Below the pieces are notes generated by a model. The model had not been told where the DNA came from and searched no databases. It saw only the letters and a list, made by a program, of their open reading frames with translations. Source: an uncultured Bacilli bacterium (GTDB taxonomy: Bacteria; Bacillota_I; Bacilli_A; RF39; UBA660). From it: 64,000 nucleotides of DNA. Position numbers and translations under genes: made by a program. This document shows, piece after piece, positions 3,684 through 51,878 of the stretch. Positions within the stretch are counted from its first letter, which is position 1. Each line of letters starts with the position of its first letter. Location: the NCBI GenBank assembly GCA_934120265.1, contig CAKOTU010000002.1, positions 40,905 through 104,904 on the forward strand, written 5' to 3'.

Positions 3684-3729
3684 TTTCTATAATTAACATG
3701 ATTTTATAGTATATAAAAAATCAGTATTT

Positions 3730-4980: not shown

Positions 4981-5714
4981 TTAAATCCTCCATCTATTCT
5001 AATTACTTCTGAATTTATATAACTTGCATCTGGAGTTGCTAAAAAGTAAATAACTTTAGCAATTTCTTCAGGACGTGCAAATCTATTTAATAGTATTTTT
5101 TCATTTTCTTTTTCAATAAAAGATTGATCTAGTTCTTTATTCATGTCTGTATTAACCCAACCTGGCGCTACAGCATTAACTCTTATATAAGGGGCATATT
5201 GTAGAGCTAAGTTCTTAGTTAAAGATATTACTCCTGCTTTAGAAGCATCATAATCTAAACTCTCAGGATATATTGTGTCTATTCCATTAGTAGATGCAAC
5301 ATTAATAATTGTGCCACTTTTATTTTCCAACATATATTTACCAACATATTTACTAACAATAAATGTACCTATTAAATTAATATCTAAAGTCTTCCTAAAA
5401 TTTTCTACTGTTTTATCTTCAAAGGTTGTATCAATAGCAATACCGGCATTATTAACTAACACATCTATATGTCCAAATGTATCAACAACTTTTCCCACCA
5501 TACTTTTTACTTCTAATTCATTTGAAACGTCACATTTAATGCATAGTGCTACTACATGATATTTATTTTCTATCTCTTCTTTTAATTTAAGTGCTACATC
5601 AGGACTATTATTATAATTTATTACTACATTATAATTATTGCTAGCAAATACTTTAGCCGCTTCTGCTCCAATACCTCTACTTGCGCCTGTTATTAATACT
5701 ACTTTATTAGACAT
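4974..5714 (-). CDS. Short-chain dehydrogenase/reductase (FabG-like 3-oxoacyl-ACP reductase family)
   Basis: N-terminal Rossmann motif TGASRGIG, NNAG motif, catalytic S...YxxxK (YDASKAG). 246 aa. Confidence 0.8.
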   Translation of the reverse strand: MSNKVVLITGASRGIGAEAAKVFASNNYNVVINYNNSPDVALKLKEEIENKYHVVALCIKCDVSNELEVKSMVGKVVDTFGHIDVLVNNAGIAIDTTFEDKTVENFRKTLDINLIGTFIVSKYVGKYMLENKSGTIINVASTNGIDTIYPESLDYDASKAGVISLTKNLALQYAPYIRVNAVAPGWVNTDMNKELDQSFIEKENEKILLNRFARPEEIAKVIYFLATPDASYINSEVIRIDGGFKC

Positions 5715-10611: not shown

Positions 10612-11592
10612 ATGAAAAAAGTATTAGTTTTATGTGGAGGAAACTCTAGCGAACACAATGTTTCTTTAATATCAGCTAAATCAATATTAGATAACATTGA
10701 TAATAATTTATTTCAAGTATCAACTGTAGTTATTGACTATGACAATAAATGGTATGAATATGGTGGAAAAGTGGATTGTTTAAGCGATTGGAAACATCAA
10801 GAATATCAATATATAGATAATATTGTGGATTACTTAAAAATGTTTGATGTAATTTTTCCAATCACTCATGGGACAAATGGTGAAGATGGAAAGTTACAAG
10901 GAATGCTTGATTTATTTGATATAAAGTATGTTGGCTGTAAAACAAGCAGTAGTGCTATATGTATGGATAAAGATTTTTCAAAGATGATTTTTTCTTATTT
11001 AGGTATTCCTCAAATACCATTTATAACTATATCAAACCAAAAATTTAAAATTCATGACATAATAAAAAAACTAGGTCTCCCACTTATTGTAAAACCTGCT
11101 AATGGTGGATCATCTATCGGCATTAATAAAGCCAATAATAAAAGAGAATTAAAAAAAGCTATCATTGAAGCTTTTAAATACGATGAAAAAATTGTAATTG
11201 AAAAATTTATTAAAGCACGTGAACTAGAATGTGGAATATTAGAAGATAAAGATTTTTATATATCTGAAGTTGGTGAAATAACATCCGCAAACGAATTTTA
11301 TGATTATAACGCTAAATATGAAAATAAAAAATCATATACAACCATTCCTGCAAATTTAAAAAAAGAAGTTAAAGATAAAATTTTTAAATATTCTAAAACT
11401 GCTTTTGACGGAATCAACGGTAAAGGTTTTGCAAGAATAGATTTTTTATATGATGAGGATAATGAACAATTATATTTAAATGAGATAAATACTTTGCCAG
11501 GATTCACTGAAATTAGTATGTATCCAAAATTATTTATTTATAGTGGTATTGAATATAAAGATTTAATTACAAAATTAATAAATAACTGTTAA
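10612..11592 (+). CDS. ddl: D-alanine--D-alanine ligase
   Basis: N-terminus KVLVLCGGNSSEHNVSLISAKS and full-length ATP-grasp Ddl architecture (GxxGEDG, C-terminal NTxPGFT). Confidence 0.85.
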   Translation: MKKVLVLCGGNSSEHNVSLISAKSILDNIDNNLFQVSTVVIDYDNKWYEYGGKVDCLSDWKHQEYQYIDNIVDYLKMFDVIFPITHGTNGEDGKLQGMLDLFDIKYVGCKTSSSAICMDKDFSKMIFSYLGIPQIPFITISNQKFKIHDIIKKLGLPLIVKPANGGSSIGINKANNKRELKKAIIEAFKYDEKIVIEKFIKARELECGILEDKDFYISEVGEITSANEFYDYNAKYENKKSYTTIPANLKKEVKDKIFKYSKTAFDGINGKGFARIDFLYDEDNEQLYLNEINTLPGFTEISMYPKLFIYSGIEYKDLITKLINNC

Positions 11593-11696
11593 ATCAATAT
11601 ATTTTACGATTTTATTACTTTTTATCATTAATAAATATAGCGTTTAAAAGAGACTTTTTACAAGTGTTTAATAAAAATGTAAAGCAATTTGACATC

Positions 11697-11888
11697 TTAC
11701 AAGAAAATATCATCTGGTTTTTTATTAAATATAGCAGCTATCTTTATAGCAAAATCATAATATAGTCTTCTCTTCTTATTTTCAATTTGAGAATAATAAG
11801 AAGATGATATTCCTAGTTTGCTAGCCATTTCATATATTGTAAAATTATTTTCTTTTCTTAATCTCTTTAGAGTATCTGTATTATACAT
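11697..11888 (-). CDS. Small XRE-family HTH protein
   Basis: 63 aa. NFTIYEMASKLGISSSYYSQIENKKR is an HTH_XRE signature. Divergent from a second XRE gene. Confidence 0.55.
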   Translation of the reverse strand: MYNTDTLKRLRKENNFTIYEMASKLGISSSYYSQIENKKRRLYYDFAIKIAAIFNKKPDDIFL

Positions 11889-11976
11889 TTAATCACCAAT
11901 TTCATTATACATTTTCATGGACTATTTGTCTATGTATTAAAAATAATTTCTATGAGAAAATAAATATGGTGGTAGT

Positions 11977-12249
11977 ATGACAAATAGCAAACAAGAGAAC
12001 ATTTATAATAAAATAGGTAAAAATATTAAAAAGTATCGATTAGAAAAAGGAATGACTCAAAGAGAGTTAGCAGATGCCTTACTTCTAAGTGAAAGTTTTA
12101 TAGCAAAGTTAGAATCTGTTACTTATCAATCAATATCAATTGATACATTAGAACAGATAGCTAAAGCTCTAGATACTAATATAACCAATTTCTTTAATGA
12201 AGATGAAATAAAAGAAACTAAGAATAAAGATTTACAATCAATTTCTTAG
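11977..12249 (+). CDS. XRE-family HTH transcriptional regulator
   Basis: 90 aa. KKYRLEKGMTQRELADALLLSESFIAKLES is an HTH_XRE signature. RBS ggtggtag. Confidence 0.6.
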   Translation: MTNSKQENIYNKIGKNIKKYRLEKGMTQRELADALLLSESFIAKLESVTYQSISIDTLEQIAKALDTNITNFFNEDEIKETKNKDLQSIS

Positions 12250-12258
12250 TTTCTTTTT

Positions 12259-14070
12259 TTATTTTCTACTATCAAATTTTTTTCTTTGTTCAGTATTTAA
12301 AATTTTCTTTCTTAAACGATAATTAAGAGGTGTAACTTCTACTAATTCATCACTATTAATATAATCTAAACTTTCCTCTAAACTCATATTACGAGGTCTA
12401 TTTAAAACAACAGTATGATCACTACCAGAAGCTCTAGTATTTGTTAATTTTTTACCTTTTACAACGTTAACTGCAAGATCATTTTCATGATTATGTTCCC
12501 CAACAATCATACCTTCATAAACATCTGCACCAGGTTCAATAAACATCACTCCACGGTCTTCTAATTGGCCTAAAGCGTAAGCTGTAGCTTTTCCGTTTTC
12601 CATAGAAACTAGAACACCAGCTTTTCTTTCTCCTACTTTGCTACTAGCCATCTTACGATATTCTAAATATGAATGATTTAACATACCATAACCTTTAGTC
12701 ATAGTCATGAAATCAGTAGTAAATCCTATTAAACCACGTGATGGCATAACATAATGGATTTTTACTTGCCCATCTGCTTGTGTCATATTAACAAGTTCTG
12801 CTTCACGGTTACCCAAAGCTTCTATTACACTACCCATATATTCTTCAGGCATGTCAATTTGAACTTCCTCATAAGGTTCACATTTAACGCCATCTATTTC
12901 TTTAACAATTACTTCTGGTTTTGATACTTGAAGTTCAAAACCTTCACGACGCATATTTTCTATTAAAATTGATAAATGTAATTCTCCACGTCCTGAAACA
13001 ATAAATGATTCAGAATCATTAGGTGCAACTTTTAAAGAAACGTCTCTTTCTGTTTCTTTTCTTAGTCTTTCAGCAATCTTACTAGCTGTTAATAATTTAC
13101 CATCTCTGCCACAGAATGGAGAAGTGTTTACTCCAAATGTCATTTGTAAAGTTGGTTCATCAATTCTTAAGTGAGGAAGCGCTTCTTCTTTTCCTACTGT
13201 ACAAACTGTTTCACCAACACTAATATCTGGAAGTCCAGCTATAGCAATTATATCCCCAGCACTAGCTTCTGTTATTTCAATTCTTTTTAGTCCTAGATAA
13301 CCAAACATTTTTTGAATTCTAAATTGTTTAATGCTCCCGTCTAATCTAACGCAGGAAACCATTTCATTTACTTTAACAGAACCACGTTTAACACGTCCAA
13401 TACCAATTCTTCCAACGAAATCATTGTAATCAAGTAAGGCAGGTTGAAATTGGAATCCACCTTCTACGTCTACATCTGGTTCTGGAATATATTTAATTAT
13501 TGCATCTAGAATAGGATCCATAGTATGTTCTTGAGTATCTAATTCTGGACTTAAACTTGATGTTCCAGCTAAACCTGAAGCATAAATGACAGGGAATTCT
13601 AATTGATCAACATCAGCACCTAATTCAATAAACAAATCTAACACTTCATCTACTACTTCAGTAGGACGAGCTGCAGATTTATCTATTTTATTAACAACAA
13701 CAATAGGTGTTACCCCTGCTTCTAAGGCCTTTTTTAAAACAAATCTAGTTTGAGGCATAGTTCCTTCATATGCATCTACAACAAGAAGCACACCATCAAC
13801 CATGTTCATAATACGTTCTACTTCTCCACCAAAGTCAGCATGTCCTGGAGTATCTAAAATGTTAATTCTATAATCTTTGTAATTAATAGCAGTTGTCTTT
13901 GATAAGATGGTAATACCACGTTCACGTTCAATGGCATTTGAATCCATTACACAATCTACTACTTCTTCATTTTCTCTAAAAGTTCCTGACATTTGTAATA
14001 ATTTATCTACCAATGTTGTCTTTCCATGGTCAACATGGGCAATTATTGCAATATTTCTTATTTTTTTCAT
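12259..14070 (-). CDS. typA: Translational GTPase TypA/BipA
   Basis: [38 protein letters not shown] motifs. 603 aa, EF-G-like domains. Confidence 0.9.
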
Positions 14071-18056: not shown

Positions 18057-18686
18057 CTATAATTCAGAAATTTTTTTATCATAGTAATTTTCAGGATTTA
18101 CAATTGATCCTTTTACAATCATTTCAAAATGTAAATGATTTTTTAAATCGTTTTCGATATTACAAGTACCACTAGTTCCAATAATATCGCCTTGTTTAAT
18201 TTCTTGATTCTCTTTTACCTTAACATCACTTAAACTTTGATAAATACTTATAATATCATTACTATGTGTTACTTCTACAATTTTACCTAAGTTTTGATCT
18301 TCTTTAATAGAAGTTACAGTACCATCTAAAATAGAAACTACATCAAATGATGCCTCTCTTCCATAACTGATACCACTATTTTGTAAGTATGTGTTTTCAT
18401 AGTATATTAATGATTTTTCTTGATTTTCAGCTTCGCTTTTATAATCATAATAATTTTTAACTATGCTTACATCGTTAACTAAATAAGGCCTTACAATAGT
18501 ATCTGCAGTGTTAATAACAGGTACATCTTCTTCTATAACTGTCTTATTTACATAATCATCATCTACACCATTAAAACTGTTCGATGGAAACATCCCTTCT
18601 ATTAGATATAATGTTCCTAGTAACATTACAAATCCTAAGGCATATAAACTATACACAACTGCTTTTTTTAATTTTCTTCTTTTCAC
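18057..18686 (-). CDS. spoIIQ: M23/LytM-domain protein in SpoIIQ position (SpoIIQ-like, intact HxH)
   Basis: N-terminal TM anchor plus a C-terminal LytM domain (HSNDIISIYQSL, NHLHFEM). Located immediately upstream of spoIIID as in Bacillus. Intrinsic terminator hairpin agagc-tta-gctct at 18030-18056. Confidence 0.55.
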   Translation of the reverse strand: MKRRKLKKAVVYSLYALGFVMLLGTLYLIEGMFPSNSFNGVDDDYVNKTVIEEDVPVINTADTIVRPYLVNDVSIVKNYYDYKSEAENQEKSLIYYENTYLQNSGISYGREASFDVVSILDGTVTSIKEDQNLGKIVEVTHSNDIISIYQSLSDVKVKENQEIKQGDIIGTSGTCNIENDLKNHLHFEMIVKGSIVNPENYYDKKISEL

Positions 18687-20421: not shown

Positions 20422-21876
20422 TTATCTAAATAATGTCCATGGATTAACTCGAACGCCTCGGTATGCAGGACCGCCGTACCATACAGCAAAATGTAAATGT
20501 GGACCTGTAGCTTGACCTGTCATACCTACATATCCTATTACTTGACCTTTTTCTACATAATCACCTACTGAAAGTGACTCAAATCTACTCATATGATTAT
20601 ACTGAGTATAGTAACCATTGTTATGATTGATTACAATATAATTTCCAGCAGTTGAAGTATAAGACTTAGTTACTATAACACCACTATTTGATGCATAAAC
20701 ATTAGAACCATAACCAGTACCAGCAATATCTAGTGCGCCATGAAGCTCACGGGCTCCAGTAACTGGATTAATACGATATGAATATCCAGATGAAATTGTC
20801 CATCCACTATCTGTAGGCCACAACCATGTAGAACTACCTATACCATAAGTTCGCTTTCCACCTTTTACAACAATTTTATCAATAGCTGGCTTTAAAGACT
20901 CTTTAGATAGCTGTTTTACATAAACTGTTGTTCCATTAGTAATTTTGACGTCTTGTTTAATTCTAAGCAGACCATTTTCTCCTTGTTGTGTAACTTTTGT
21001 AACTCCATAATTTAAAGTTTCATCAACTTCTTCTATTGTTTTATATGAATCTACTAAATCCTCGATTACTTGTTGTTCAACAGTTACCTTTATTTGTGGA
21101 TCCAAGATTCCTATTACAAGTTCTAAACCAGGATATAACAATGCATTAGAATTTTTAAACTGTGGATTGGAAATTAATAATTCCTCTACACTAATTTCAT
21201 TGTCAAAAGCAACTTGTTCCATTGTATCGCCTAAATTTACAACATATTTTTTTTGTTGCTCTGTTGTGCCAAAAAGCAAATATTTGGTAAGTTCCTCTGC
21301 AGATGTATATATTTTTTCAGTAGTAGGAATATAAGCTTCCTTTATAGTCATTTCATTTTCAATATAAATATTATTTATGTAAGTACCTACATCCTTTATT
21401 TGAGACTGACTTTTATTTATGTAATTATTATAATTGTCTGTTCCAACAAAGGTCTTTATGGCATTCTCTAGTGATTCTTTATAAATTTTATCATCTAAAA
21501 CGTATATTACTTGACTTTCTTCATTATTATAAACTGTTAGTTGATAGCCTTTAACTGTAAATGGTTTCTTACTTTGAATTAAATTATATATATCACTTAT
21601 ATCATCTAATTTCTCAGCATAACTAACAATTTTTTTTACTTCTAGGCCATTAGGAGCATAAACTTCATCTATGTTATATTTTTGTTTTATATACTCTTCT
21701 GTATTACTTATATATCTCTCTAATTGTTTTTTTGATTTTATATTACCAATTAGTTCCCCATCTAAAGTTACTTGATAATATGTATATGGTTGAGAATTTT
21801 TTTTTGTTGAAAGTCCTAAAAAGACAGTAATACTTGAAAGTATCAAAATAAAAATAACAAAAAAAGCTTTCTTCAT
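20422..21876 (-). CDS. Secreted LysM-domain M23 metallopeptidase
   Basis: Signal/TM N-terminus, a central LysM-like segment (YVVNLGDTMEQVAFDNEISVEELLISNP) and a C-terminal M23 domain (HGALDIAG...GPHLHFAV). Confidence 0.75.
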   Translation of the reverse strand: MKKAFFVIFILILSSITVFLGLSTKKNSQPYTYYQVTLDGELIGNIKSKKQLERYISNTEEYIKQKYNIDEVYAPNGLEVKKIVSYAEKLDDISDIYNLIQSKKPFTVKGYQLTVYNNEESQVIYVLDDKIYKESLENAIKTFVGTDNYNNYINKSQSQIKDVGTYINNIYIENEMTIKEAYIPTTEKIYTSAEELTKYLLFGTTEQQKKYVVNLGDTMEQVAFDNEISVEELLISNPQFKNSNALLYPGLELVIGILDPQIKVTVEQQVIEDLVDSYKTIEEVDETLNYGVTKVTQQGENGLLRIKQDVKITNGTTVYVKQLSKESLKPAIDKIVVKGGKRTYGIGSSTWLWPTDSGWTISSGYSYRINPVTGARELHGALDIAGTGYGSNVYASNSGVIVTKSYTSTAGNYIVINHNNGYYTQYNHMSRFESLSVGDYVEKGQVIGYVGMTGQATGPHLHFAVWYGGPAYRGVRVNPWTLFR

Positions 21877-21941: not shown

Positions 21942-23573
21942 CTACTTGCTTTTAAAAAACTTATTTTTTAGTTTTAAAATAACGCCATCTCCAAAAACAT
22001 CTTTTATAATCCCCATTTTCCAAGTAAAAAATATGTAAATTGTAGCACCTATTAAAGAATAGATAATAACATTCAATAAAGAAAGCATTCTTGTTGTGTT
22101 AGGTATATTAATTATTAATCTTAAAATATATAAGAAGCCAAGCATAAGAGCAATATTTAATACAATTTTTAATAAGATATCAAATGTTTCCTTATAACTA
22201 AATTTATACTTTTTCTTTAATAAAGATAACACAATAATAGTAGTTAGTAACTCTACTAATGCATTTGTTATTGTTGGACCAAAGTAAGAATCTATACCAC
22301 AATATTTAACAATATACATCATAGGAATATTTAGTAAAGCCTTCGCCAAAAAGCTGCCTAAAAGAGAACCTAAAGCTATTTTTGTTTCACTCATGGATTG
22401 CGCCAAATTTATTACTGTCGTATATAAACTAAAAAATACAACTTGAAGAATAAATATTCTAAAGATGCTAATGCTTAAAGCACTATAACCATAGAAAACA
22501 TTCCAGATTGGTGTTGCTAAAAAACTAATACCAAAGGCCATCGGTAAAGTGGTATATAATAAAATTTTTAAACTTTGGTTAATTTTAGTATTTACATCAT
22601 TGTAGTCCTTTTTTGCCATACTACTTGCTATATTAGGTACCAAACTAATTGTTAAACCTAATGATACAGATATTACTATCATATTAAGCTTAGTTCCCCA
22701 AGTTGCCATTACTCCAAATGCTGTTTCAGCAGTATTTATATCATATCCAATATTTACCAAAGTTCTAACTACTGTCACAGAATCTACAATACCATAAGCA
22801 GATTTTAACAAATCTATTATAACAAAAGGTAAAGCATAAAATATTACTTGTTTTAATAAATATTTTTTATCAAATTTCTTCTCTTCTTCTTTTAATTCGT
22901 ATACTGTCTTGTCTTTATAATTTTTATATTTAAGTTTTAAAAATATATATGAAGTAAGTGCACCTAAAGAAGCACCCAAAATTGCAACATATACTGCACA
23001 CTCAATTGATAAATTGAAAACTCGAACAGTAACATAGCTTCCTGCCACTATTACTATTACTCGTACTAATTGCTCAATAACTTCTGCAATACTAGTAGGT
23101 GTAATATATTTATGTCCCTGTAAATATCCTCTCATTAAACTTAATCTAGGAACGATCAATAACGCAAGGGATACTAATCTTATTGCTATAGTTACTTGTT
23201 CAACCGTATTTCCACCTGTAATATTACCAATTATAACTTTGGCAATAGAACTAGAAAATATAAATAACACTAAGAAAGATATAAAACCTATTGTATTAAT
23301 TAACTTAGATGATATTTTATAAATTTTTTCCTTAGTATTTTTATATCCTAACTCGTCATATTCACTAACAATTTTAGAAATTGCTGTAGGAATACCGGAA
23401 ATAGATAAACTTAAGAATATTGAATATATAGAATATGCATAACTATATAAAGCTCCACCCTTAGTACCAATAATATTATAAAAAGGAATTACATATATAA
23501 GTCCCAATATTTTACATAATACTATGCCTAATGTAGCAATCATCATTCCTTCAACAAAATTATTTTTTTTCAT
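21942..23573 (-). CDS. MOP-superfamily flippase (MurJ/SpoVB/YtgP-like polysaccharide-lipid II exporter)
   Basis: 543 aa with ~14 TM helices. The N-terminus MMIATLGIVLCKILGLIYVIPFYNIIG is typical of the SpoVB/MurJ family. Confidence 0.7.
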   Translation of the reverse strand: MKKNNFVEGMMIATLGIVLCKILGLIYVIPFYNIIGTKGGALYSYAYSIYSIFLSLSISGIPTAISKIVSEYDELGYKNTKEKIYKISSKLINTIGFISFLVLFIFSSSIAKVIIGNITGGNTVEQVTIAIRLVSLALLIVPRLSLMRGYLQGHKYITPTSIAEVIEQLVRVIVIVAGSYVTVRVFNLSIECAVYVAILGASLGALTSYIFLKLKYKNYKDKTVYELKEEEKKFDKKYLLKQVIFYALPFVIIDLLKSAYGIVDSVTVVRTLVNIGYDINTAETAFGVMATWGTKLNMIVISVSLGLTISLVPNIASSMAKKDYNDVNTKINQSLKILLYTTLPMAFGISFLATPIWNVFYGYSALSISIFRIFILQVVFFSLYTTVINLAQSMSETKIALGSLLGSFLAKALLNIPMMYIVKYCGIDSYFGPTITNALVELLTTIIVLSLLKKKYKFSYKETFDILLKIVLNIALMLGFLYILRLIINIPNTTRMLSLLNVIIYSLIGATIYIFFTWKMGIIKDVFGDGVILKLKNKFFKSK

Positions 23574-23623: not shown

Positions 23624-24865
23624 TTAATATTTAGTAGTTCTATTATAGAAAGTATTTCCACCAGAAGGGAAATTAACAATATTTCTTGGATTGTATGTTT
23701 TTGACACAAATGTATTCCAACTTGTATAATCTTTCAAATACCAACCGTCTGCAACCATAAAATGCAAGTGAGCTCCCGTTGAACAACCATCCCAAGTTTC
23801 TATAGATGGATCTCCACCCATTACTGCTATTTGAGTATCTTTCGTAACAGTATCTCCAATAGAAACCAAAATTCTTCTTAAATGTACATAGGCAGTGGTA
23901 TATTTTTTGCCATTTATAGTGTGATTAATATATATTTTATTTCCTCCGCAACTTGCTTTGGTAACAATTCCAACGACTTTTCCAGCTGCTGCCGCATAAA
24001 CAGGAACGTTGCTATTTGGGTAAGTTGTAATATCTAGACCTGTATGAAAATCTGTAACTTTTTTTCCACCTAAATAATATGTTCTATATCCATATTCACT
24101 ACTTCTATGGCCTGTAACTAAAGGCCTCCAAAAAGAAGTATCCGCTGGTAATTTATCAGCTGTACAAACGGAAATTTCATCACTATCTTTACATTTATAT
24201 TGCTGCTCATATAATCGAATTGCTTCTTGTTTTACTTTTATGTCTTCCTCTATATCTACTGTTAAATCTATAATTCCTGTTAATTTGTCGCCTAGTGAAT
24301 CCAATTGTTGATTTAATTCACCTTGTTTTTTAACTAAATCAGCTTCCATGTTTTGTAATTCTTTTTGTTTCTTTTTACTTTCTTCTATTAATCTATTATG
24401 TTCATCAACTAGATCTTTGTTATATTTTGTTAATTGTTCTGAAATTGCTAATCTATAAATAAAATCTGTATAAGTTGTGGCACTGAAAATATATTCTAAA
24501 TAAACAGATTCACCATTTGCTTGCTGATAAAATCTTACTATGTCTTTGATTTCTTCTTCTCTTTTAACAATATCTTCTTTTAATTGTTCTATCTGTACTC
24601 CAAGTTCAACAACCGTATTTTGATTATCTTCTATTTGTTTATATATTGAACTAATATTACTCTTTATATTACTAATTTGTTTTTCAGTAAGTTCTTTTTG
24701 ATTTTTTGTATTATTAAATTCTTCAATTTGTTTATTTAACTCTGCCTTTAGATCTCCTAATGTTTTGGCATGAATTCTATCAAATGGTATAAATAAGCAT
24801 GTGCAAAATAATACTAATGATAAAACCAAATTTAGTAATTTTTTTAAAATCTTCATTTGAACCAC
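23624..24865 (-). CDS. Coiled-coil M23 peptidase (EnvC/FtsEX-type murein hydrolase candidate)
   Basis: Signal/TM, ~200-aa heptad-rich coiled coil (E/K/Q-rich) and a C-terminal M23 domain (HTGLDIT...GAHLHFMV). Confidence 0.75.
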   Translation of the reverse strand: MVQMKILKKLLNLVLSLVLFCTCLFIPFDRIHAKTLGDLKAELNKQIEEFNNTKNQKELTEKQISNIKSNISSIYKQIEDNQNTVVELGVQIEQLKEDIVKREEEIKDIVRFYQQANGESVYLEYIFSATTYTDFIYRLAISEQLTKYNKDLVDEHNRLIEESKKKQKELQNMEADLVKKQGELNQQLDSLGDKLTGIIDLTVDIEEDIKVKQEAIRLYEQQYKCKDSDEISVCTADKLPADTSFWRPLVTGHRSSEYGYRTYYLGGKKVTDFHTGLDITTYPNSNVPVYAAAAGKVVGIVTKASCGGNKIYINHTINGKKYTTAYVHLRRILVSIGDTVTKDTQIAVMGGDPSIETWDGCSTGAHLHFMVADGWYLKDYTSWNTFVSKTYNPRNIVNFPSGGNTFYNRTTKY

Positions 24866-24896: not shown

Positions 24897-26138
24897 CTAT
24901 TTAAATTTATCAATAATTTTATGTAGGCAATATTTACCAGGACTTGTAACTAAATCAAAATCGCCTATATATTCAACTACAGTACCACCAAAGCCTTTTT
25001 TAAATGTATAAACTCCAAACCTATCATCATCTTTACTAAAATTACCATTAATGCCGTAAAAATTATGAAGCTTATAATCTTTTTTTATTCCATATTGAAT
25101 GATATGCCACTGCAACAAATATTGAGATTTTAATGTCATAAATTCACTTTTAGTACCACTGTACAAGTAAACACTTTCATCTCCATAAAGCATAAACATT
25201 GCACCAGCCATCATTAATGTTTTTCCATATTTTAACTTTTGTTCTTGAGCCTCTTTTATTCTTGATTCAAGTACTTCTATTTGACTTGAAAATTCGGCTT
25301 TTCTTGCCTTAGTAGAAACAGAATCACTCAACTTATCTTTCTTTTTAATGATTTCTGTTTTTTCTTTACTTAACTCCTCAATATATTGATCAACATCTAG
25401 TTCTGTAACTAAAAATTTAACTTGCTCTTTTGGATGAAAAAGATTATACATTTTTTGATAGTACTCTGTTTTTCTACTATGAAAATTTTTTCTGCTACCG
25501 CTACTTTCTACTATCTCTGTAAATTTTTCTAATTCATCATAAGCTAGCTCTCTAACGCTAACGCCATTTTTTAAATTTTTTCTTATAGTATTTCTGGTAT
25601 TTGGCTTAAATTTACTAAATACCTCCTCCTCTGTTTGATTTGAGATATCAAGTACAAAAGCCCATCTGACCTGCTTATTTAAATCCAAATGTTCATAAAA
25701 GCCACCATGTTTATATCCAAGATTAATCAAATTATCATATATATCAGAATTATCAAAGCCATTTGGTACTAAATTACCATCTATATCTCTTTCTTTATAA
25801 TAAATTTTTGGTTCTATTTTTAAAACATATCCGCCCTTACTTTTTACATATTTTTTAATTTTCTTAGTAAAAAACTCTAATAAGTCTTTGTTTCTAAAAT
25901 CTATCAAATAACCTCTTGGAGCATTAAAAAACTTACCCATTCTACCATTATATGATATCATCATAGTTGCGCATATTATCTCATTATTTTCCTTTACACC
26001 AACAAAGTATTTTTCCCAACCATCCATAACCTTCAGTTCACCCATCTCTGGTGTTTGTAAATATGATCTTAAGGGATGATTATCTGCAAAACTTCTAAAT
26101 TCTTCTTGAGTTAACTCAACAAATTTCATTATTATCAC
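24897..26138 (-). CDS. FemAB-family aminoacyl-tRNA-dependent peptidoglycan cross-bridge transferase
   Basis: 413 aa. GNAT-like Fem halves separated by the coiled-coil insertion typical of FemA/FemB/FmhB (KEKTEIIKKKDKLSDSVSTKARKAEF...). C-terminal FKKGFGG motif. Confidence 0.8.
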   Translation of the reverse strand: MIIMKFVELTQEEFRSFADNHPLRSYLQTPEMGELKVMDGWEKYFVGVKENNEIICATMMISYNGRMGKFFNAPRGYLIDFRNKDLLEFFTKKIKKYVKSKGGYVLKIEPKIYYKERDIDGNLVPNGFDNSDIYDNLINLGYKHGGFYEHLDLNKQVRWAFVLDISNQTEEEVFSKFKPNTRNTIRKNLKNGVSVRELAYDELEKFTEIVESSGSRKNFHSRKTEYYQKMYNLFHPKEQVKFLVTELDVDQYIEELSKEKTEIIKKKDKLSDSVSTKARKAEFSSQIEVLESRIKEAQEQKLKYGKTLMMAGAMFMLYGDESVYLYSGTKSEFMTLKSQYLLQWHIIQYGIKKDYKLHNFYGINGNFSKDDDRFGVYTFKKGFGGTVVEYIGDFDLVTSPGKYCLHKIIDKFK

Positions 26139-26182
26139 CTATATACATCATACTACAAAATTTATTTTTATTAAAGGACTTT

Positions 26183-26208
26183 TTGAAAATAGTATATTGT
26201 GCTATAAT
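26183..26208 (+). promoter_or_regulatory. Promoter with extended -10 (TGcTATAAT) for the alr/ATP-grasp operon
   Basis: TTGAAA at 26183-26188, a 14-nt spacer, TG at 26200-26201 and TATAAT at 26203-26208. The track ORF start at 26197 falls inside this promoter. Confidence 0.4.
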
Positions 26209-26229
26209 AAAGCAGAGGATGATTTTTTT

Positions 26230-27423
26230 ATGTATAGAAACACTTATTTAGAAATAAATTTAGATAATATTAAAAAAAATACGCATAATTTATTACAAAA
26301 ATACAATGACTACGATTATTATTTTGGTGTCGTAAAAGGTAATGCCTACGGTCATGGATTTTACATTATTAATACATTAATAGAAGCAGGTATAAATTAT
26401 TTAGCTGTCTCAAATTTAGATGAAGCTCTAAAGATTAGAAAAATTAATAAGGAAATACCAATTTTATGCTTAGAGCCTATCAATTTAAAATGGTTAGAAA
26501 TTTGTTCTAAAGAAAATATAACTATAACTGTTTCTTCCTTAGATTATGTCAAAAAAATTAATGAGTTTCAAAATAGTATTAAAATACACATTAAAATTGA
26601 TAGTGGAATGAATAGATTAGGTTTTGATAACAAGAAAGATTTGGAAGAAGCTATTAATTTAATAAAGGAAAATAGTAATCTCTACCTTGAAGGAATTTAT
26701 ACTCATATGGGTACACTTGGAATAAATGATCCTTATAGAAAAAAGCAACTAACAAGTTTCGAAGATATAACAAGTAATATCAATCTTGCAGAGTTTAAAA
26801 TTGTTCATATTGACAGAAGCGTTACTGCAATGTGTAACAAAAAAATAGATTACTGCAACGGGGTTAGAATGGGAATATCTCTTTACGGTTACAATCAATT
26901 ACCTATTATAAATAACACTTTAAAAGATAAACTTAGAAATATAAAAAGATGGTTGCAAAGAAAAAAATATCATATTGAAAATTATGAATTCGATAGAAAT
27001 ATAGATTTAACCCCTGCATTAAGTTTATATAGTGAAGTTATAGAAATTAAAACTGTTCATAATGGAGAGTTTGTTGGGTATTTTGGCTATCTACACCAAG
27101 GAGAGGATATTACTGTTGCAACCGTTTGCATCGGGTATGCAGATGGACTAGATTTAAAATCAAATGGAGCGTATGTTTCAATAAAAAACAAAAAGTATAA
27201 AATAATTGGAACTATAAACATGGGAATGATTTCTGTAGTAGTTGATAAAAATATTATGGTTGGAGATAAAGTGGCTATAATAAGTAATGACAATGGTATT
27301 AGAGAGTTAAGCAGCTGCAATGAAACTACAATATATAAAACGATGACATGCTTATCACCACTACTCCCAAGGGTATATATTAAAAATAATAAAGTAGAAA
27401 AAATTGAGGAGATGTCTTTATGA
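26230..27423 (+). CDS. alr: Alanine-racemase-family PLP enzyme (fold type III)
   Basis: Start MYRNTYLEINLDNIKKN matches the Alr N-terminus. PLP-lysine motif VVKGNAYGHG. RBS agaggatga. C-terminal beta domain present. Confidence 0.8.
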   Translation: MYRNTYLEINLDNIKKNTHNLLQKYNDYDYYFGVVKGNAYGHGFYIINTLIEAGINYLAVSNLDEALKIRKINKEIPILCLEPINLKWLEICSKENITITVSSLDYVKKINEFQNSIKIHIKIDSGMNRLGFDNKKDLEEAINLIKENSNLYLEGIYTHMGTLGINDPYRKKQLTSFEDITSNINLAEFKIVHIDRSVTAMCNKKIDYCNGVRMGISLYGYNQLPIINNTLKDKLRNIKRWLQRKKYHIENYEFDRNIDLTPALSLYSEVIEIKTVHNGEFVGYFGYLHQGEDITVATVCIGYADGLDLKSNGAYVSIKNKKYKIIGTINMGMISVVVDKNIMVGDKVAIISNDNGIRELSSCNETTIYKTMTCLSPLLPRVYIKNNKVEKIEEMSL

Positions 27424-28643
27424 AATTTAAAACTTTAATAATTGGTTCTGATATTAATGCCTATTATATGGCACGTTGCTATCACGAAGAATATAATGAT
27501 AAAGCTCATTTAATCGCTAAAGAACCTATGAATTTCACAAATTTAAGTACTATACTAACAATAGAATATCATCATAATCTTTGGGAAAAAGAGGCTTTCT
27601 TAGAAGCTGTTAATGATTACGCTGAGAAGTATAAAGATTATAAAATTCTTATTATACCGAGCAATGATTTCTATGTAAGATTAATCGTTGAAAATAAAAA
27701 AAATTTAAGAAAAAATCTCGTTTTCCATGATTTAGACATAGATTTACTAAATAATCTTTTAATAAAAGATAACTTTTACAGTTTTTTCAAAGATTCAGGA
27801 TTAGAATTCCCAAAAACATACATATATGATTGTTCATTAAAAAATAAATTAACCAAAGAAAATATAAAAGATTTCAAATTTCCAATAATTATTAAACCGG
27901 GAGATGGAGTTGCTTATTATAAGGCAAAGTTTGAGGGACAATCCAAGGTATATAAGGTTAATAGTTTAAAAGAAATCCAAGATATTATTTCAAAAATAAC
28001 AAATGCAGGATATAAAAAGAAGCTCATTATACAAGAGTTTATTCCTGGAGGAGATGATAAACTTTTTGATTCTATATTCTATAGTAACAAAAATCATAAG
28101 GCTGAATTAGCATCTTTTGCTCAAATTGGTCTTCAAGAACATACCCATACTGGTATCGGAAACTGTACCGTTTTAGTTAATGGTTTTTGTGAATTTGGCA
28201 ATTATGAAAATGAAATTTATAAAATGAAAGAGTTTTTAGAGAATAACAATTATTGTGGTTTTGCCGAATTCGATTTAAAATATGATGAAAGAGATAAAAA
28301 GTTTAAAGTTTTTGAAATAAACCCACGTCAAGCAAGAAGTAGTTACTACTTATGTGCCTGTGGATACAATCTAGTTAAATACTTAGTAGATGATTTAATT
28401 AAAAACGAACAAAAAGACTTTGTTATCATAAAGAAAGAGTATGCGCTTAGCTTTGTTCCTACATTTGTTATAAAAAAATATATAAAAAATGATAAACTTA
28501 AAAAAGAAGTATTAAAATTAAAGAAAAGCAAAAATTTTGTAGATCCTCTAAACTATAAACAAGATAAAAATTTAAAAAGAAAAGCTTGGTTATTTATAAG
28601 AAAAATTAATTATATAAAAAAATATAAAAATAATCAGTGGTAA
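27420..28643 (+). CDS. ATP-grasp carboxylate-amine ligase of unknown specificity (D-amino-acid/peptidoglycan branch ligase candidate)
   Basis: ATP-grasp core (FPIIIKPGDGVAYYKAKF, LIIQEFIPGGDD, EFDLKYD...FKVFEINPR). Start ATG overlaps the alr stop (ATGA), implying translational coupling. Confidence 0.7.
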   Translation: MKFKTLIIGSDINAYYMARCYHEEYNDKAHLIAKEPMNFTNLSTILTIEYHHNLWEKEAFLEAVNDYAEKYKDYKILIIPSNDFYVRLIVENKKNLRKNLVFHDLDIDLLNNLLIKDNFYSFFKDSGLEFPKTYIYDCSLKNKLTKENIKDFKFPIIIKPGDGVAYYKAKFEGQSKVYKVNSLKEIQDIISKITNAGYKKKLIIQEFIPGGDDKLFDSIFYSNKNHKAELASFAQIGLQEHTHTGIGNCTVLVNGFCEFGNYENEIYKMKEFLENNNYCGFAEFDLKYDERDKKFKVFEINPRQARSSYYLCACGYNLVKYLVDDLIKNEQKDFVIIKKEYALSFVPTFVIKKYIKNDKLKKEVLKLKKSKNFVDPLNYKQDKNLKRKAWLFIRKINYIKKYKNNQW

Positions 28644-28647
28644 AAAA

Positions 28648-28672
28648 ATAAGAGCTAAATAATAGCTCTTAT
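28648..28672. terminator. Bidirectional intrinsic terminator between the ATP-grasp gene and rpmE
   Basis: ataagagcta-aat-aatagctcttat (10-bp stem) followed by ttttc. Overlaps the rpmE stop. Confidence 0.5.
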
Positions 28673-28878
28673 TTTTCTTGGTTTAAACCATATTTACGGT
28701 TGAATTTTTCAACTCTACCAGTTTTTGCAGCTTTTCCTTGAACACCTGTAAAAAATGGATGACATTTATCACAAACTTCTAAATGTAAAGAAGGTTTATT
28801 TGATTTTACTGTGAATTTGTTTCCACAAGCACAAGTTACTTCTGTTTCTACATAATTTGGATGTATTCCTTTTTTCAT
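28669..28878 (-). CDS. rpmE: 50S ribosomal protein L31
   Basis: MKKGIHPNY...CxC...[10 protein letters not shown] is a canonical L31 with a Zn ribbon. The internal start at 28878 has RBS aggagata. The longer ORF-track start adds a non-conserved 10 aa. Confidence 0.9.
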
Positions 28879-43974: not shown

Positions 43975-44679
43975 CTATAAAGGCTTATTTTTTATTTCTT
44001 TTGGATTACGTGGATATCGTTTTGATGTTGGTTTTTGTTTTGTTATTAATAATAAAGTACGATTACTATCTTCTTTTGGTAGTAAAAATTCATCACTTTT
44101 TAACAACATCCCATCTATCTTTTTTAGAGAACTATCTAATAAGTTTATTTCCCGGGAAATATTTCCTTTCATAGGAATAAAATATTTCCCAACTTTTGCT
44201 AATGGTAAACAATACTCTATCAAAATATTTATTGGTGCTACTGCACGGGCTGTTACAACATCATATTTTTCACGGTTATTTTTAGCAAAATCTTCTGCTC
44301 TGTCATGAACTAATTCTATATCTTTTAAAACTAACTGTTTTACCACTTCATTTAAAAATGTTATACGTTTTTGTAATGAATCAACCAAAGTTATCTTTAA
44401 ATCAGGATAAACTATCTTTAAAACTATTCCTGGAAATCCTGCACCACTACCTATATCACATAGTGTACTTTCTTTTTTTAAATCTATTATTCTAGCAATT
44501 GTTAGACTATCATAAAAATGTTTCAAATATACTTCTTTTTCTTCGGTTATGCCAGTTAAATTCATAACTTTATTCCATTCAACTAAAAGTTGATAATATT
44601 GATTTAGTTGTTCTAATTGTTTGTCTGTAAGTTGAATATTTAAATTTTTTAAAGCCTCTATAAATTCAGTTTTATCCAC
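43975..44679 (-). CDS. rsmG: 16S rRNA (guanine527-N7)-methyltransferase RsmG (GidB)
   Basis: SAM-binding motif DIGSGAGFPG, N-terminus EQLNQYYQLLVEWNKVMNLT. 234 aa. Confidence 0.9.
   Translation of the reverse strand: MDKTEFIEALKNLNIQLTDKQLEQLNQYYQLLVEWNKVMNLTGITEEKEVYLKHFYDSLTIARIIDLKKESTLCDIGSGAGFPGIVLKIVYPDLKITLVDSLQKRITFLNEVVKQLVLKDIELVHDRAEDFAKNNREKYDVVTARAVAPINILIEYCLPLAKVGKYFIPMKGNISREINLLDSSLKKIDGMLLKSDEFLLPKEDSNRTLLLITKQKPTSKRYPRNPKEIKNKPL
44147..44160. promoter_or_regulatory. Noc-binding site (NBS), exact consensus ATTTCCCGGGAAAT, inside rsmG
   Basis: Perfect 14-bp palindrome identical to the B. subtilis NBS consensus. Adjacent to the noc-like gene. Confidence 0.6.
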
Positions 44680-46540
44680 GATTGTACTCCTTTTTTAAAT
44701 AAACCATTAAAATTGAAATATCTGCAGGATTTACGCCGCTTATTCTTAACGCTTGAGCTATAGTTGTAGGTCTTACTTCTTTTAATTTTTGTTTTGCTTC
44801 ACTAGCTATATTGTGTATTGCATCATAATCAATATCTTCTGGTATTTTTTTATTTTCTAAATTATTTAACTTTTCTGCTTCTTTTAGGGCTTTGGTTATA
44901 TATCCCTCATATTTTATTTCTATTTCAACTTCTTCTATTATTTCTTCATCAAAGTCAATATCCAAATATTTTTTTACAATATCCATATCTATTTCAGGAC
45001 GTTTTAATAAATTATAAAAAGTTATTCCATCTTTTAAGATTGCAGAATTGATGGATGCTAGAAATTCATTTACTTCAACTTTAGGATTTAATTTATTATT
45101 TCTTAATATTTCTTTTAATTCTTCTATTTTTGCTTTTTTGTCTAAGAATTTTTGGTATCTATCTTCGTCTATTAAACCTACATTATGACCAATCTCTCTT
45201 AATCTTAAATCAGCATTGTCATTTCTTAATAATAAACGATACTCTGCTCTTGAAGTCAATAAACGATAAGGATCTCTTACTCCCTTTGTTACTAAATCAT
45301 CAATTAAAACACCAATATATGCTTCATTTCTCTTTAATATTAGTGGTTCTTTTCCTTCTAATTTTAAAGAAGCATTTATTCCTGCAATTAATCCTTGACA
45401 TGCAGCTTCTTCATAACCACTAGTTCCATTTATTTGACCGGCTGTATAAAGTCCTTCTATTAATTTGGTTTCTAGAGATTGTTTTAATTGTGTAGGATAT
45501 ATTGCATCATATTCAATTGCATAGGCATATTTTAGTATTTTAGCATTTTCTAACCCTGGTAAACTATGAACCATTAATTCTTGAACATCATGAGGCATAC
45601 TTGTTGAAAAACCTTGTAAATATATATCGTCATAGTATAAACTTTCTGGCTCCAAAAACAATTGATGTTTTTCTTTATCAGCAAATCTTACAACTTTATC
45701 TTCAATAGAAGGACAATATCTTGGACCTATACCTTTTATATCATCTAATCCCCCATACATACTAGCTTTGTGAAGATTATCTCTGATAATTTTATGTGTT
45801 TCAGGTGTTGTATAAATTAAATGACATGATATTTGATCTTCTATTTTATATTGTGGTTTTCTATCAAAACTAAATGATAATAATTTATCGTCACCTTTTT
45901 CTTCTCTAGTTTTTGTAAAATCAATTGTATTTTTATCGATTCTTTGTGGCGTTCCTGTTTTTAATCTTATTATTTTAAAGCCTAATTTTTCTAAATTATC
46001 ACTTAAGTGCATACTTGGTCTTTCACCATGGGGCCCCTGTCTTGTTCTTGTATCTCCAACTAAAATATCAGCTTTTAAGTATGTTCCAGTTGTTAAAACC
46101 ACTGCTTGAGCATAAATTTTTTCTCCAGTTTCTAAAACTACACCTTTTATTTTATTATTTTCAACGATTAAATCTTCTACTAAAGATTCTTTAATCTCTA
46201 AATTTGGTGTTGATGTTAATGTTTTTAACATTTCTTTAGGATATGTTACTTTATCACCTTGAGCACGCAAAGCCTGTACTGCTGGTCCTTTTCCACTGTT
46301 TAACATTTTAATTTGAATTTGACCTTTATCTGCATTTACACCCATTTCTCCACCTAAAGCATCAATTTCTCTTACAACAATCCCTTTGGCACTACCACCA
46401 ATTGATGGATTACAAGGCATATCCGCAATATTTTTGATATTTCCTGTTATTAATAATGTTTTATGACCTTTTCTAGCGCTTGCTAAAGATGCTTCACATC
46501 CTGCATGTCCACCACCAACAACTATTATTTCATATTCCAT
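44672..46540 (-). CDS. mnmG: tRNA uridine-5-carboxymethylaminomethyl modification enzyme MnmG (GidA)
   Basis: Start MEYEIIVVGGGHAGCEA (FAD GxGxxG) at 46540 with RBS aggtga. The 8-codon-longer track start lacks an RBS. 622 aa. Confidence 0.9.
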   Translation of the reverse strand: MEYEIIVVGGGHAGCEASLASARKGHKTLLITGNIKNIADMPCNPSIGGSAKGIVVREIDALGGEMGVNADKGQIQIKMLNSGKGPAVQALRAQGDKVTYPKEMLKTLTSTPNLEIKESLVEDLIVENNKIKGVVLETGEKIYAQAVVLTTGTYLKADILVGDTRTRQGPHGERPSMHLSDNLEKLGFKIIRLKTGTPQRIDKNTIDFTKTREEKGDDKLLSFSFDRKPQYKIEDQISCHLIYTTPETHKIIRDNLHKASMYGGLDDIKGIGPRYCPSIEDKVVRFADKEKHQLFLEPESLYYDDIYLQGFSTSMPHDVQELMVHSLPGLENAKILKYAYAIEYDAIYPTQLKQSLETKLIEGLYTAGQINGTSGYEEAACQGLIAGINASLKLEGKEPLILKRNEAYIGVLIDDLVTKGVRDPYRLLTSRAEYRLLLRNDNADLRLREIGHNVGLIDEDRYQKFLDKKAKIEELKEILRNNKLNPKVEVNEFLASINSAILKDGITFYNLLKRPEIDMDIVKKYLDIDFDEEIIEEVEIEIKYEGYITKALKEAEKLNNLENKKIPEDIDYDAIHNIASEAKQKLKEVRPTTIAQALRISGVNPADISILMVYLKKEYNRG

Positions 46541-46548
46541 ATTTTCAC

Positions 46549-47895
46549 CTACTTTCCTAAACAAAATTGACTAAATAATTGGTCTATTAACTCTTCTTCA
46601 TATGTTTCACCAATTATTTCACCTAATATATTCCAACTATCTTTAATATCTATTTCCACCATATCTATTGGATAATTATCATCTATTCCTTTATCTGCAC
46701 TTTTTAAAGATTGCATAGCTTGTTTTAATAAAGAAATACTTCTAGCACTGCTTAAATAAGATAAATCTTCTGTTTCTATTTTTTCTAAATTATAAAGCTC
46801 TTTTATTTTGTTTTTTAAATCATCTATACCTATATTTTCTTTTGCACTTATGTATACACAATCATCATCGTTTAAGTTTAATTTTTTATTTAGATCACAT
46901 TTATTAATAACTATAATATGATTTTTATTTTTTAACTGTTCTATTATCTTTTTATCCTCTAGTGTTATATCTTCATTATTATTTAATAAAAACAACACTA
47001 AATCAGCTTTATCTATTAAACTTAAACTTTTTTCTACACCTATTTTTTCAACAACATCTTCTGTTTGCCTAATTCCAGCAGTATCTATTATATTTAAAAT
47101 AATTCCATCTAAGTTTATTTTTCCTTCAACTATATCTCTCGTTGTTCCTTCTATATCAGTTACTATTGCTTTATCTTCCTCTAATAATCTGTTTAATAAA
47201 CTACTTTTTCCTACATTTGGACGACCAAGAATTAAAACATCTATGCCTTCCTTTATGATCTTAGTATTTTCACTATGATTTATTATTTCTTTTAATTTCT
47301 TTATTATATTAGTTATTTGAGGTTTTATTATTTGTGTAGATAATACAACTATATCGTCATATTCTGGATAATCAATATTAACTTCTATATTAGCAAGAAT
47401 TTCAACTATTTCTTTTCTTAATTCTTTAATAAGCTCAGAAGAAGTTCCACTTAGCTGATTTATCGCTAAGTTTCTAGCTTTTTCCGTTTTAGAATTAATT
47501 AAATCCATTACTCCTTCTGCTTCTATTAAATCTATTCTACCATTTAAAAAGGCTCTTTTAGTAAATTCACCCGGCTCAGCTAAGCAACATCCATTATTTA
47601 AAAGTAATTCTAATACTTTATTTGTTGTAGATATTCCACCATGACAATTTATTTCTACAGTATCTTCTGTTGTAAAGCTTTTTGGTGCTCTCATAATAGA
47701 TACCAAAACTTCATCTATTATTTTACCATCTTCTACTATATGTCCATAAGTTATGGTATGAGTTGGTTGGGATGTTAAATCTTTACCTTTAAAAATACTA
47801 TTTACTATTTTTATTGATTCTGAACCACTTACTCTAATAATTGATATTGCACCTACACCTAGTGATGTGGCGATTGCAGCTATAGTATCTTCCAT
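46549..47895 (-). CDS. mnmE: tRNA modification GTPase MnmE (TrmE)
   Basis: N-terminal TrmE domain (DTIAAIATSLG...ISIIRVSG), G-domain GRPNVGKSSL, DTAG, C-terminal CLGK tetrapeptide. Confidence 0.9.
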   Translation of the reverse strand: MEDTIAAIATSLGVGAISIIRVSGSESIKIVNSIFKGKDLTSQPTHTITYGHIVEDGKIIDEVLVSIMRAPKSFTTEDTVEINCHGGISTTNKVLELLLNNGCCLAEPGEFTKRAFLNGRIDLIEAEGVMDLINSKTEKARNLAINQLSGTSSELIKELRKEIVEILANIEVNIDYPEYDDIVVLSTQIIKPQITNIIKKLKEIINHSENTKIIKEGIDVLILGRPNVGKSSLLNRLLEEDKAIVTDIEGTTRDIVEGKINLDGIILNIIDTAGIRQTEDVVEKIGVEKSLSLIDKADLVLFLLNNNEDITLEDKKIIEQLKNKNHIIVINKCDLNKKLNLNDDDCVYISAKENIGIDDLKNKIKELYNLEKIETEDLSYLSSARSISLLKQAMQSLKSADKGIDDNYPIDMVEIDIKDSWNILGEIIGETYEEELIDQLFSQFCLGK

Positions 47896-47965
47896 AATAA
47901 TCTCTCCTTTGCTAGATATATTTTAGTATTAAATAGTATTTTAGTCAACAAAAAAATAAAGGGGC

Positions 47966-49839: not shown

Positions 49840-49860
49840 ATAGCACCTTCTTTAAACTAA

Positions 49861-49884: not shown

Positions 49885-49889
49885 AAATA

Positions 49890-51870: not shown

Positions 51871-51878
51871 GTTTATTT

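Follow-up and report, generated by a model that had tools for sequence, protein, structure and literature searches.

A conserved gene pair of an alanine-racemase-fold enzyme and a D-aspartate-ligase-family protein as a candidate D-amino acid cross-bridge module of uncultured Firmicutes

Organization of the racemase-ligase locus

The window analyzed here is a 64,000-nucleotide stretch (27% G+C) of contig CAKOTU010000002.1 from an uncultured Bacilli bacterium; its organism is an endospore-forming Firmicute, as the genes for CotJB, SpoIIID, SpoIID, and SpoIIR all lie in the window. We focused on two adjacent genes, the first encoding a pyridoxal 5′-phosphate (PLP) enzyme of the alanine-racemase fold (Alr*) and the second encoding an ATP-grasp ligase (Asl*) (Table 1). 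As read from the sequence, the ATG of the ligase gene overlaps the TGA of the racemase gene as ATGA, and a GAGGAG ribosome-binding site (RBS) is located 8 nt upstream. The racemase gene most likely starts at ATG 26230, which is preceded by the RBS AGAGGA and matches the gene calls of identical metagenome contigs, rather than at TTG 26197. The initial annotation had described an overlapping racemase-ligase pair divergent from a FemAB gene, with the genuine D-Ala-D-Ala ligase (Ddl) encoded elsewhere, and all four genes were found in the places that it gave. Its additional claim of an extended –10 promoter held only in part. The motif TGcTATAAT is present in the divergent intergenic region; however, it ends only about 5 nt before the racemase RBS, almost on top of it, and promoter-like matches in this AT-rich intergenic stretch are not enriched (25 found versus 29.9 expected from shuffles). 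Because of this crowding and because the matches do not exceed the shuffles, the use of the motif as a promoter is unproven.

Table 1. Coordinates of the racemase-ligase pair and of other features discussed in the text (positions in the window)
Feature	Coordinates	Strand	Description
Alr* racemase gene	26230..27423	+	397 amino acids; Ala_racemase_N and Ala_racemase_C domains; alanine-racemase-fold PLP enzyme
Asl* ATP-grasp ligase gene	27420..28643	+	407 amino acids; carboxylate-amine ligase of the D-aspartate-ligase family
Translational-coupling junction	27406..27423	+	RBS GAGGAG at 27406-11; ATGA stop/start overlap at 27420-23
TGnTATAAT motif (extended –10 type; here TGcTATAAT)	26200..26208	+	In the 100-bp divergent intergenic region
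Terminator-like hairpin	28644..28676		14-bp stem with a trailing T tract; separates the ligase gene from the convergent rpmE
FemAB-family aminoacyl-tRNA-dependent transferase	24897..26138	-	Divergent from the pair; Pfam FemAB; coiled-coil insert
M23 peptidase with PcsB-type coiled coil	23624..24865	-	Domain identification; family recurs near the pair
MurJ/SpoVB-like flippase-family membrane protein	21942..23573	-	Domain identification; family recurs near the pair
D-Ala-D-Ala ligase (Ddl), context only	10612..11592	+	Dala_Dala_lig_N and Dala_Dala_lig_C domains

Asl* is placed in the D-aspartate-ligase family

A sequence search of Asl* against all PDB chains gave no match at E values up to 1, and only sub-threshold ATP-grasp and "CPS-like" (carbamoyl-phosphate synthetase) matches were obtained from Pfam and NCBIfam; since none of these searches gave anything above threshold, the protein was placed via its homologues. 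A word-indexed search identified 2249 homologues at E values up to 1e-3 among 8000 word-sharing candidates scored, as well as 1970 clusters at 50% identity, and their source names, where given, are "carboxylate--amine ligase" or "D-aspartate ligase." Three homologues, 30 to 35% identical to Asl*, occur naturally fused with an Asp/Glu-type racemase domain (PF01177). In Latilactobacillus curvatus, a gene for a 233-amino-acid PF01177 racemase directly precedes that of a 417-amino-acid ligase, which aligns with Asl* end to end (residues 3 to 406, 31% identity, E value of 9e-68).

The AlphaFold2 (AF2) model of Asl* (predicted local distance difference test [pLDDT] value of 93.5) shows a typical ATP-grasp fold. 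Its nearest solved folds are PylC and L-amino-acid ligases, which share the ATP-grasp fold with Asl* but are only 14 to 15% identical to it, with template modeling (TM) scores of about 0.55. The Mg/ATP-site residues K116, K159, K176, Q205, D285, E299, N301, and R303 are found family-wide, and Asl* contains all of them. A Pfam search revealed no Ddl domain match in the protein; with the separate Ddl gene and the fold comparison also considered, a Ddl-like or RimK-like role was rejected. On the basis of its homologues and fold, Asl* belongs to the D-aspartate-ligase (Asl) family and is distinct from Ddl, RimK, CPS, and cyanophycin synthetase. The ligase clusters with no characterized non-cell-wall family, an outcome that the initial annotation had named as refuting its proposal.

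A sister clade with 43 to 49% identity is made up of Asl-family ligases from cultured Planococcaceae and related genera (Planococcus, Sporosarcina, Psychrobacillus, Lysinibacillus, and others). They have no adjacent racemase or AsnB gene and, unlike Asl*, keep N283 and C123; the genera concerned presumably have Lys/Orn-D-Glu or Lys/Orn-D-Asp bridges. Several distant ligase homologues (P0329, P0334, P0384, and P0339) are fused to a DegT/DnrJ-type sugar aminotransferase, one of them (1235 amino acids) also to FemAB, and these fusions probably decorate amino sugars with amino acids rather than peptidoglycan stems.

The pair is conserved, and its ligases form a distinct clade

In a species scan (one genome per species), 80 loci were returned, and pair counts were made on 82 non-redundant species-level loci. 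A racemase gene of the Alr* clade lies directly upstream of the ligase gene, on the same strand, in 50 of these 82 loci; 41 of the 50 paired loci show an overlap or a gap of at most 20 nt. The pairwise identities of Alr* and Asl* correlate (r = 0.79), and every Alr* gene in the loci examined is accompanied by the ligase gene. Such pairing goes far beyond chance, and the possibility raised by the initial annotation that the two genes might not stay together in relatives was not borne out. The carriers are gut and rumen metagenome-assembled genomes (MAGs) labeled Bacilli, "Tenericutes," Clostridia, Acutalibacteraceae, and Lachnospiraceae, and a few MAGs bear other labels (Saccharibacteria, Muribaculaceae, Ignavibacteriales) that probably stem from errors of binning or labeling. 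No description of an alanine-racemase-fold enzyme paired with an Asl-type ligase was found in the searched literature, consistent with the earlier view that the pairing is uncharacterized.

In the neighbor-joining tree, the paired ligases form one group, a clade of their own within the Asl family. The exceptions are three loci of this clade in which the upstream gene is replaced (L023, L028, and L074); no substitute racemase was found upstream there, and the genes in its place encode a DNA methyltransferase plus an unidentified protein, an MntP protein, and MraY. The paired clade has a private signature: residue 283, two positions before the Mg ligand D285, is changed from Asn to Glu in 100% of its members, whereas N283 is found in 81 to 100% of the members of the other ligase groups and in 67% of the three RacD fusions. 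Further changes are C123 to Y/F, P5 to V/I/T, L/V237 to G, and M215-x216 to L-F. The window ligase carries T5, F123, L215, F216, G237, and E283, so that the family's near-invariant P5, C123, and N283 are all absent from it.

Alr* keeps its catalytic residues and has a remodeled entryway

Alr* scores 164.6 and 79.4 bits with the Ala_racemase_N and Ala_racemase_C domains of Pfam and 247 bits with TIGR00492 (cut-off, 168 bits), and it contains the PLP-lysine motif GVVKGNAYGHG. The best PDB folds for its AF2 model (pLDDT value of 86.5) are alanine racemases, with TM scores of about 0.82. The racemase partner of the ligase thus differs in family from the classical Asp/Glu-type RacD, as the initial annotation had noted. 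In the following, residues are numbered according to the alanine racemase of Geobacillus stearothermophilus (GsAlr; sequence verified against PDB entry 1l6f), to which Alr* is about 30% identical. The catalytic and PLP-binding residues K39, Y43, K129 (the position of the carbamylated Lys), R136, H166, S204, R219, Y265′, M312′, and Y354 are all kept in the window protein; among 47 clade members, K39, Y43, R136, R219, Y265, and M312 are invariant (47/47), Y354 is found in 46, and H166 and S204 are found in 43.

Structural papers describe the substrate entryway of alanine racemases, with an inner layer (Y265′, Y354, Y284′, and an Ala) and a middle layer (R309′, I352, R290′, and D171), as strictly conserved among the known structures, and according to the literature even lysine and broad-spectrum racemases preserve its charge pattern. 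The window Alr* departs from this conservation, in that all four middle-layer residues are changed (D171G, R290L, R309T, and I352T; G164, L309, T328, and T367 in its own numbering), and E172I, N203R, D313G, and Q314M are also found. The same trend holds across the clade: position 171 is Gly in 47/47 members, E172 is replaced by hydrophobic residues, R309′ by D/E/T/N, and I352 by N/S/T, and R290′ is kept as Arg or Lys in only about 60%. Position 203 is Arg or Lys in 47/47 members; that it lies near the PLP phosphate is taken from the literature on Staphylococcus aureus Alr, in which the Asn203 side chain contacts the phosphate via a water molecule. In addition, the interdomain linker of Alr* comprises 44 residues, compared with 19 in GsAlr, because of an insert of about 20 to 25 residues with a basic helix (predicted at residues 231 to 246 in the AF2 model). 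Across the clade, the linker has 35 to 45 residues versus 15 to 19 in canonical enzymes, with an insert of the consensus LRKxKRxxxxKK and a mean net charge of +6.6.

Alr* therefore shares with Alr/DadX (EC 5.1.1.1, TIGR00492) the two-domain fold, the PLP-lysine motif, and the catalytic Lys/Tyr pair but differs in the lost middle layer of the entryway, the lost acidic pair, Arg203, and the basic linker helix. We infer from these residues that it is an active PLP racemase that no longer looks alanine specific. The loss of the acidic pair, the Arg/Lys by the phosphate, and the basic helix are compatible with an anionic side chain in the substrate. VanT (serine racemase), Lyr (lysine racemase), Bar/Bsr (broad-spectrum racemases), and histidine racemase are precedents for new specificity in the alanine-racemase fold; however, none of them is a closer sequence relative of Alr* than Alr is, and whereas Lyr and Bar have a replaced Y354 and a preserved acidic/basic charge pattern in the entryway, Alr* keeps Y354 and loses the charge pattern.

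Operon context of the paired clade parallels that of the classical RacD branch

AsnB (asparagine synthase; 515 bits with TIGR01536) is encoded in 30 of the 50 paired loci, and in 25 its gene comes directly after that of the ligase. MurE often comes after AsnB, and its motif is EDPR, EDAR, EDPG, or others, not the DNPR of meso-diaminopimelate (mDAP)-type enzymes. In six Oscillospirales-type loci, five genes form the operon Alr*-Asl*-AsnB-MurJ-like-Alr2, in which Alr2 is 31 to 34% identical to Alr* and canonical at every position that is changed in Alr*. No PF01177-type gene was found within about 8 kb of the pair in the 50 paired loci.

Four loci from Lachnospiraceae-labeled MAGs (L017, L022, L031, and L033) have a gene for an EctB-like diaminobutyrate-2-oxoglutarate transaminase within the Alr*-Asl* operon, between AsnB and an EDAR-type MurE (at about 11.1 to 12.4 kb in locus coordinates; TIGR02407, 577 bits, above the cut-off). 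Its presence may point to L-2,4-diaminobutyrate at position 3 of the stem peptide in these four organisms, and taken with the motifs of the operon-linked MurE proteins, it suggests non-mDAP diamino acids at this position.

As a control, a metagenome scan was carried out with the classical RacD-linked ligase branch (80 loci). RacD follows Asl or is fused to it in 61 of 66 loci, AsnB comes next in 33 of 49, and MurE follows in some; no Alr-family gene was found in the loci of this branch. Both branches thus consist of a racemase, a ligase, and AsnB (plus MurE in some loci), and they differ in the family and position of the racemase. In eight classical loci (L137, L138, L141, L144, L159, L160, L163, and L171), asparagine-synthase genes stand on both sides (AsnB-Asl-RacD-AsnB), which suggests two distinct amidation steps.

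The characterized counterpart is the AslA/Aslfm-RacD(-AsnH) system known from Lactococcus lactis, Enterococcus faecium, and lactobacilli. One L. lactis operon contains both aslA and racD; D-Asp, activated as β-aspartyl phosphate, is attached by the ligase to the L-Lys of the peptidoglycan precursor, and AsnH later amidates the α-carboxyl of the ligated D-Asp (PMC4155827). The adjacent racemase and ligase genes of L. curvatus correspond to this racD-aslA arrangement. The window pair resembles this system in its end-to-end homologous ligase and coupled racemase gene and, in its relatives, in the AsnB-type amidotransferase, often with MurE, encoded downstream. However, RacD is a cofactor-independent Asp/Glu-type racemase encoded downstream of the ligase, whereas Alr* is a PLP-dependent, alanine-racemase-fold enzyme encoded upstream, and the Asl* clade has its own signature (E283, Y/F123, and G237) at near-invariant positions.

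A candidate D-Asp cross-bridge module and its alternatives

Since the Asl-RacD-AsnB and Alr*-Asl*-AsnB(-MurE) operons run parallel, an acidic D-amino acid that is later amidated appears to be the best candidate for the substrate. The simplest reading of this parallel would be that Alr*, a non-orthologous enzyme, has taken the place of RacD in a D-Asp to D-isoasparagine module. We give about an even chance to the proposal that the pair is such a D-Asp cross-bridge module, with the alanine-racemase-fold enzyme in place of RacD and an acidic D-amino acid, D-Asp in the first place and D-Glu in the second, as its product. From the gene structure, family assignments, conservation, residue changes, and operon parallels described above, we infer what the two enzymes do, which amino acid they handle, and which acceptor receives it, as follows. 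Alr* would convert an amino acid to its D-form, and Asl* would activate the carboxyl of this D-amino acid as an acyl phosphate and join it to the side-chain amine of residue 3 of UDP-N-acetylmuramyl (UDP-MurNAc)-pentapeptide or lipid II. In most relatives, the α-carboxyl that is left free would next be amidated by the AsnB/AsnH-type amidotransferase whose gene adjoins that of the ligase, and in the window organism the divergent FemAB would extend the bridge by another L-amino acid or by glycine. Bridges of mixed composition, such as Lys-Ala-Asp or Lys-Gly-Glu, are known.

The D-Ala-, D-Ser-, or D-Lys-type substrate proposed in the initial annotation is not the best reading, given that the operon parallel with AsnB points to an acidic residue. 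D-Ala is unlikely because six genomes hold a canonical alr in the same operon, and the presence of two alanine-racemase-fold genes in one operon argues against both a D-Ala product and simple redundancy. A basic D-amino acid was rejected, because Alr* has lost the acidic pair of the entryway that even lysine racemases keep.

If the D-Asp module is correct, Alr* would be the first alanine-racemase-fold enzyme (fold-type III, PLP dependent) dedicated to an acidic D-amino acid, and the pair would represent a clean non-orthologous replacement in the D-Asp cross-bridge pathway. Annotation pipelines hide such an enzyme under the name "alanine racemase," although the module occurs in dozens of gut and rumen Firmicutes (about 50 species, mostly uncultured). 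The wall chemistry of these carriers shapes the muropeptides seen by the host, the sensitivity to lysozyme and endolysins, and the susceptibility to antibiotics such as D-cycloserine. In addition, G171, R/K203, and the basic helix of the racemase, together with E283 of the ligase, are testable specificity determinants for both enzyme families.

Several points weigh against a D-Asp module. No Asp/Glu racemase of the alanine-racemase fold is listed in searchable reviews, and we know of no enzyme of this fold that racemizes Asp or Glu. The inner-layer tyrosines Y265′, Y354, and Y284′ are retained in Alr*, leaving a narrow gate. The private signature of the paired ligases (N283E, which lies beside the predicted acyl-phosphate site, C123Y/F, and P5), which sets them apart from every other family member, RacD-linked ones included, could reflect a different carboxylate substrate, and the end-to-end comparison within the Asl family was made with the racD-linked ligase of L. 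curvatus. Among the 80 genome loci, none of the carriers of the pair is cultured, and no cultured member of established wall chemotype came to light. Finally, AsnB, MurE, and a second Alr are all absent from the 64-kb window, so that Alr* could be the only D-Ala source of the organism; in the syntenic relative L089, AsnB is located 6 kb from the pair, within the same cell-wall cluster.

It is possible, though not probable, that the pair installs neither D-Asp nor D-Glu but another D-amino acid (e.g., D-Ser or D-Asn, via its α-carboxyl) or that Alr* epimerizes the residue after ligation; either case would mean a peptidoglycan chemotype and an enzyme chemistry that are undescribed and widespread in uncultured gut Firmicutes. 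A neutral D-amino acid comes into consideration because both enzymes carry clade-specific active-site changes. Here, Alr* would make D-Ser, D-Asn, or D-Thr, the ligase would join its α-carboxyl to the side chain of residue 3, and AsnB would serve another amidation (of mDAP or isoglutamate) or supply L-Asn to the racemase. The small inner tyrosine gate of Alr* would suit such a substrate, and PylC, the nearest solved fold of the ligase, joins the α-carboxyl of a D-amino acid to Lys Nε. The carboxylate of E283, which replaces the family-wide Asn two positions before D285, could hold the α-ammonium beside the activated carboxyl; we take this residue to correspond by position to R255 of Ddl. This reading is nevertheless rather doubtful, since an acidic D-amino acid explains the parallel with the Asl-RacD-AsnB operon more simply and no particular neutral amino acid is independently favored. 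Moreover, Alr* keeps Y354, whereas the serine racemases known in this fold, those of the VanT type, replace it.

Alr* could also be an ordinary alanine racemase that feeds D-Ala to Ddl and MurF and whose gene is co-transcribed with that of the ligase in a cell-wall operon, with the ligase drawing on MurI for D-Glu or on a racemase encoded elsewhere for D-Asp. The protein passes the NCBIfam alr equivalog cut-off with all its catalytic residues kept, it is the only Alr in the window, and the Planococcaceae sister ligases do without any adjacent racemase. However, the clade-wide replacement of invariant entryway residues and the inserted basic helix would not be expected of such an enzyme. Six genomes have a canonical alr in the very same operon, and Alr*, which co-varies with the ligase, was not met without it among the loci examined; we therefore consider this explanation unlikely.

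Both remaining explanations are highly improbable. In the first, the ligase would add an L-residue to the precursor and Alr* would invert it in place, following the ligate-then-epimerize logic for which MurD2/MurL of Xanthomonas is a precedent. The free α-amino group could form a Schiff base with PLP, and a widened, neutralized entryway and the basic helix could accommodate the nucleotide-peptide; the remodeled entryway, the K/R-rich helix near its outer layer, the tight gene coupling, and the co-variation of the proteins are in line with this. However, no enzyme of the alanine-racemase fold is known to act on a residue bound in a peptide, Alr* retains the inner tyrosine constriction, and the classical module uses a racemase of free amino acids. 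In the second, the pair would decorate teichoic acid, a polysaccharide, or another amine instead of peptidoglycan, as the DegT-type fusions (one also with FemAB) of distant family members and the recurring Polysacc_synt/MurJ-like transporter might suggest, but these fusions are far from the paired clade in the tree, the neighbors of the pair are MurE, MraY, MurA, FemAB, and AsnB, and the nearest ligase relatives from cultured bacteria belong to taxa that presumably have D-Glu or D-Asp bridges.

Cell-wall neighborhood and other features of the window

The neighbors of the pair in the window are cell-wall genes (FemAB, M23/PcsB, MurJ-like, and MurA), to which relatives add MurE and MraY. The FemAB protein matches PF02388 over its entire length (369.8 bits, profile positions 1 to 406 of 406), with a coiled-coil-like stretch at residues 247 to 301. 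The link between FemAB and the pair that the initial annotation had drawn applies to the window and its close relatives: a divergent FemAB gene is found in the identical contigs L001 to L003 and in L089/L090, and a short Fem gene is found in L016, but most loci have none. The M23/PcsB-type family occurs near the pair in 8 of the 50 loci and the MurJ/SpoVB-like family in 18, and the window MurJ-like protein matches the flippase-like protein of the Alr*-Asl*-AsnB-MurJ-like-Alr2 operons with 368 bits.

In L008 (ligase 61% identical), FemAB is replaced upstream, at 2685-5287, by genes for a RimK-like ATP-grasp protein of 330 amino acids, a 536-amino-acid protein with a class I/II aminotransferase domain, and S-adenosylmethionine synthetase, which may constitute another amino acid ligation system. 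L089 and L090 encode a 529-amino-acid MurF-like Mur ligase (11561-13150) between rpmE and a GDSL lipase gene; its score falls short of the murF cut-off, its N terminus is extended by about 165 residues, and the window contains no counterpart. On the minus strand of the window, a 7-kb stretch holds three M23-family peptidase genes, at 18057-18686 and 20422-21876 in addition to the one listed in Table 1; one encodes a G5 domain, one the PcsB-type coiled coil, and one a short protein. They are interleaved with the MurJ/SpoVB-like, SpoIID, and SpoIIID genes and form with them a dense wall-remodeling and sporulation cluster beside the pair.

The chromosomal replication origin also lies in the window; the pair is about 22 kb away from oriC, and its transcription runs opposite to the local gene orientation. 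The origin region spans 44672-59241 and is centered on 49503-50373, with mnmG, mnmE, jag/KhpB, and yidC on the minus strand followed by dnaA (50374-51726), dnaN, recF, gyrB, and gyrA on the plus strand. Six DnaA-box-like 9-mers (TTTTCCACA) are found at 50106-50305, and the cumulative GC skew reaches its minimum near 50 kb.

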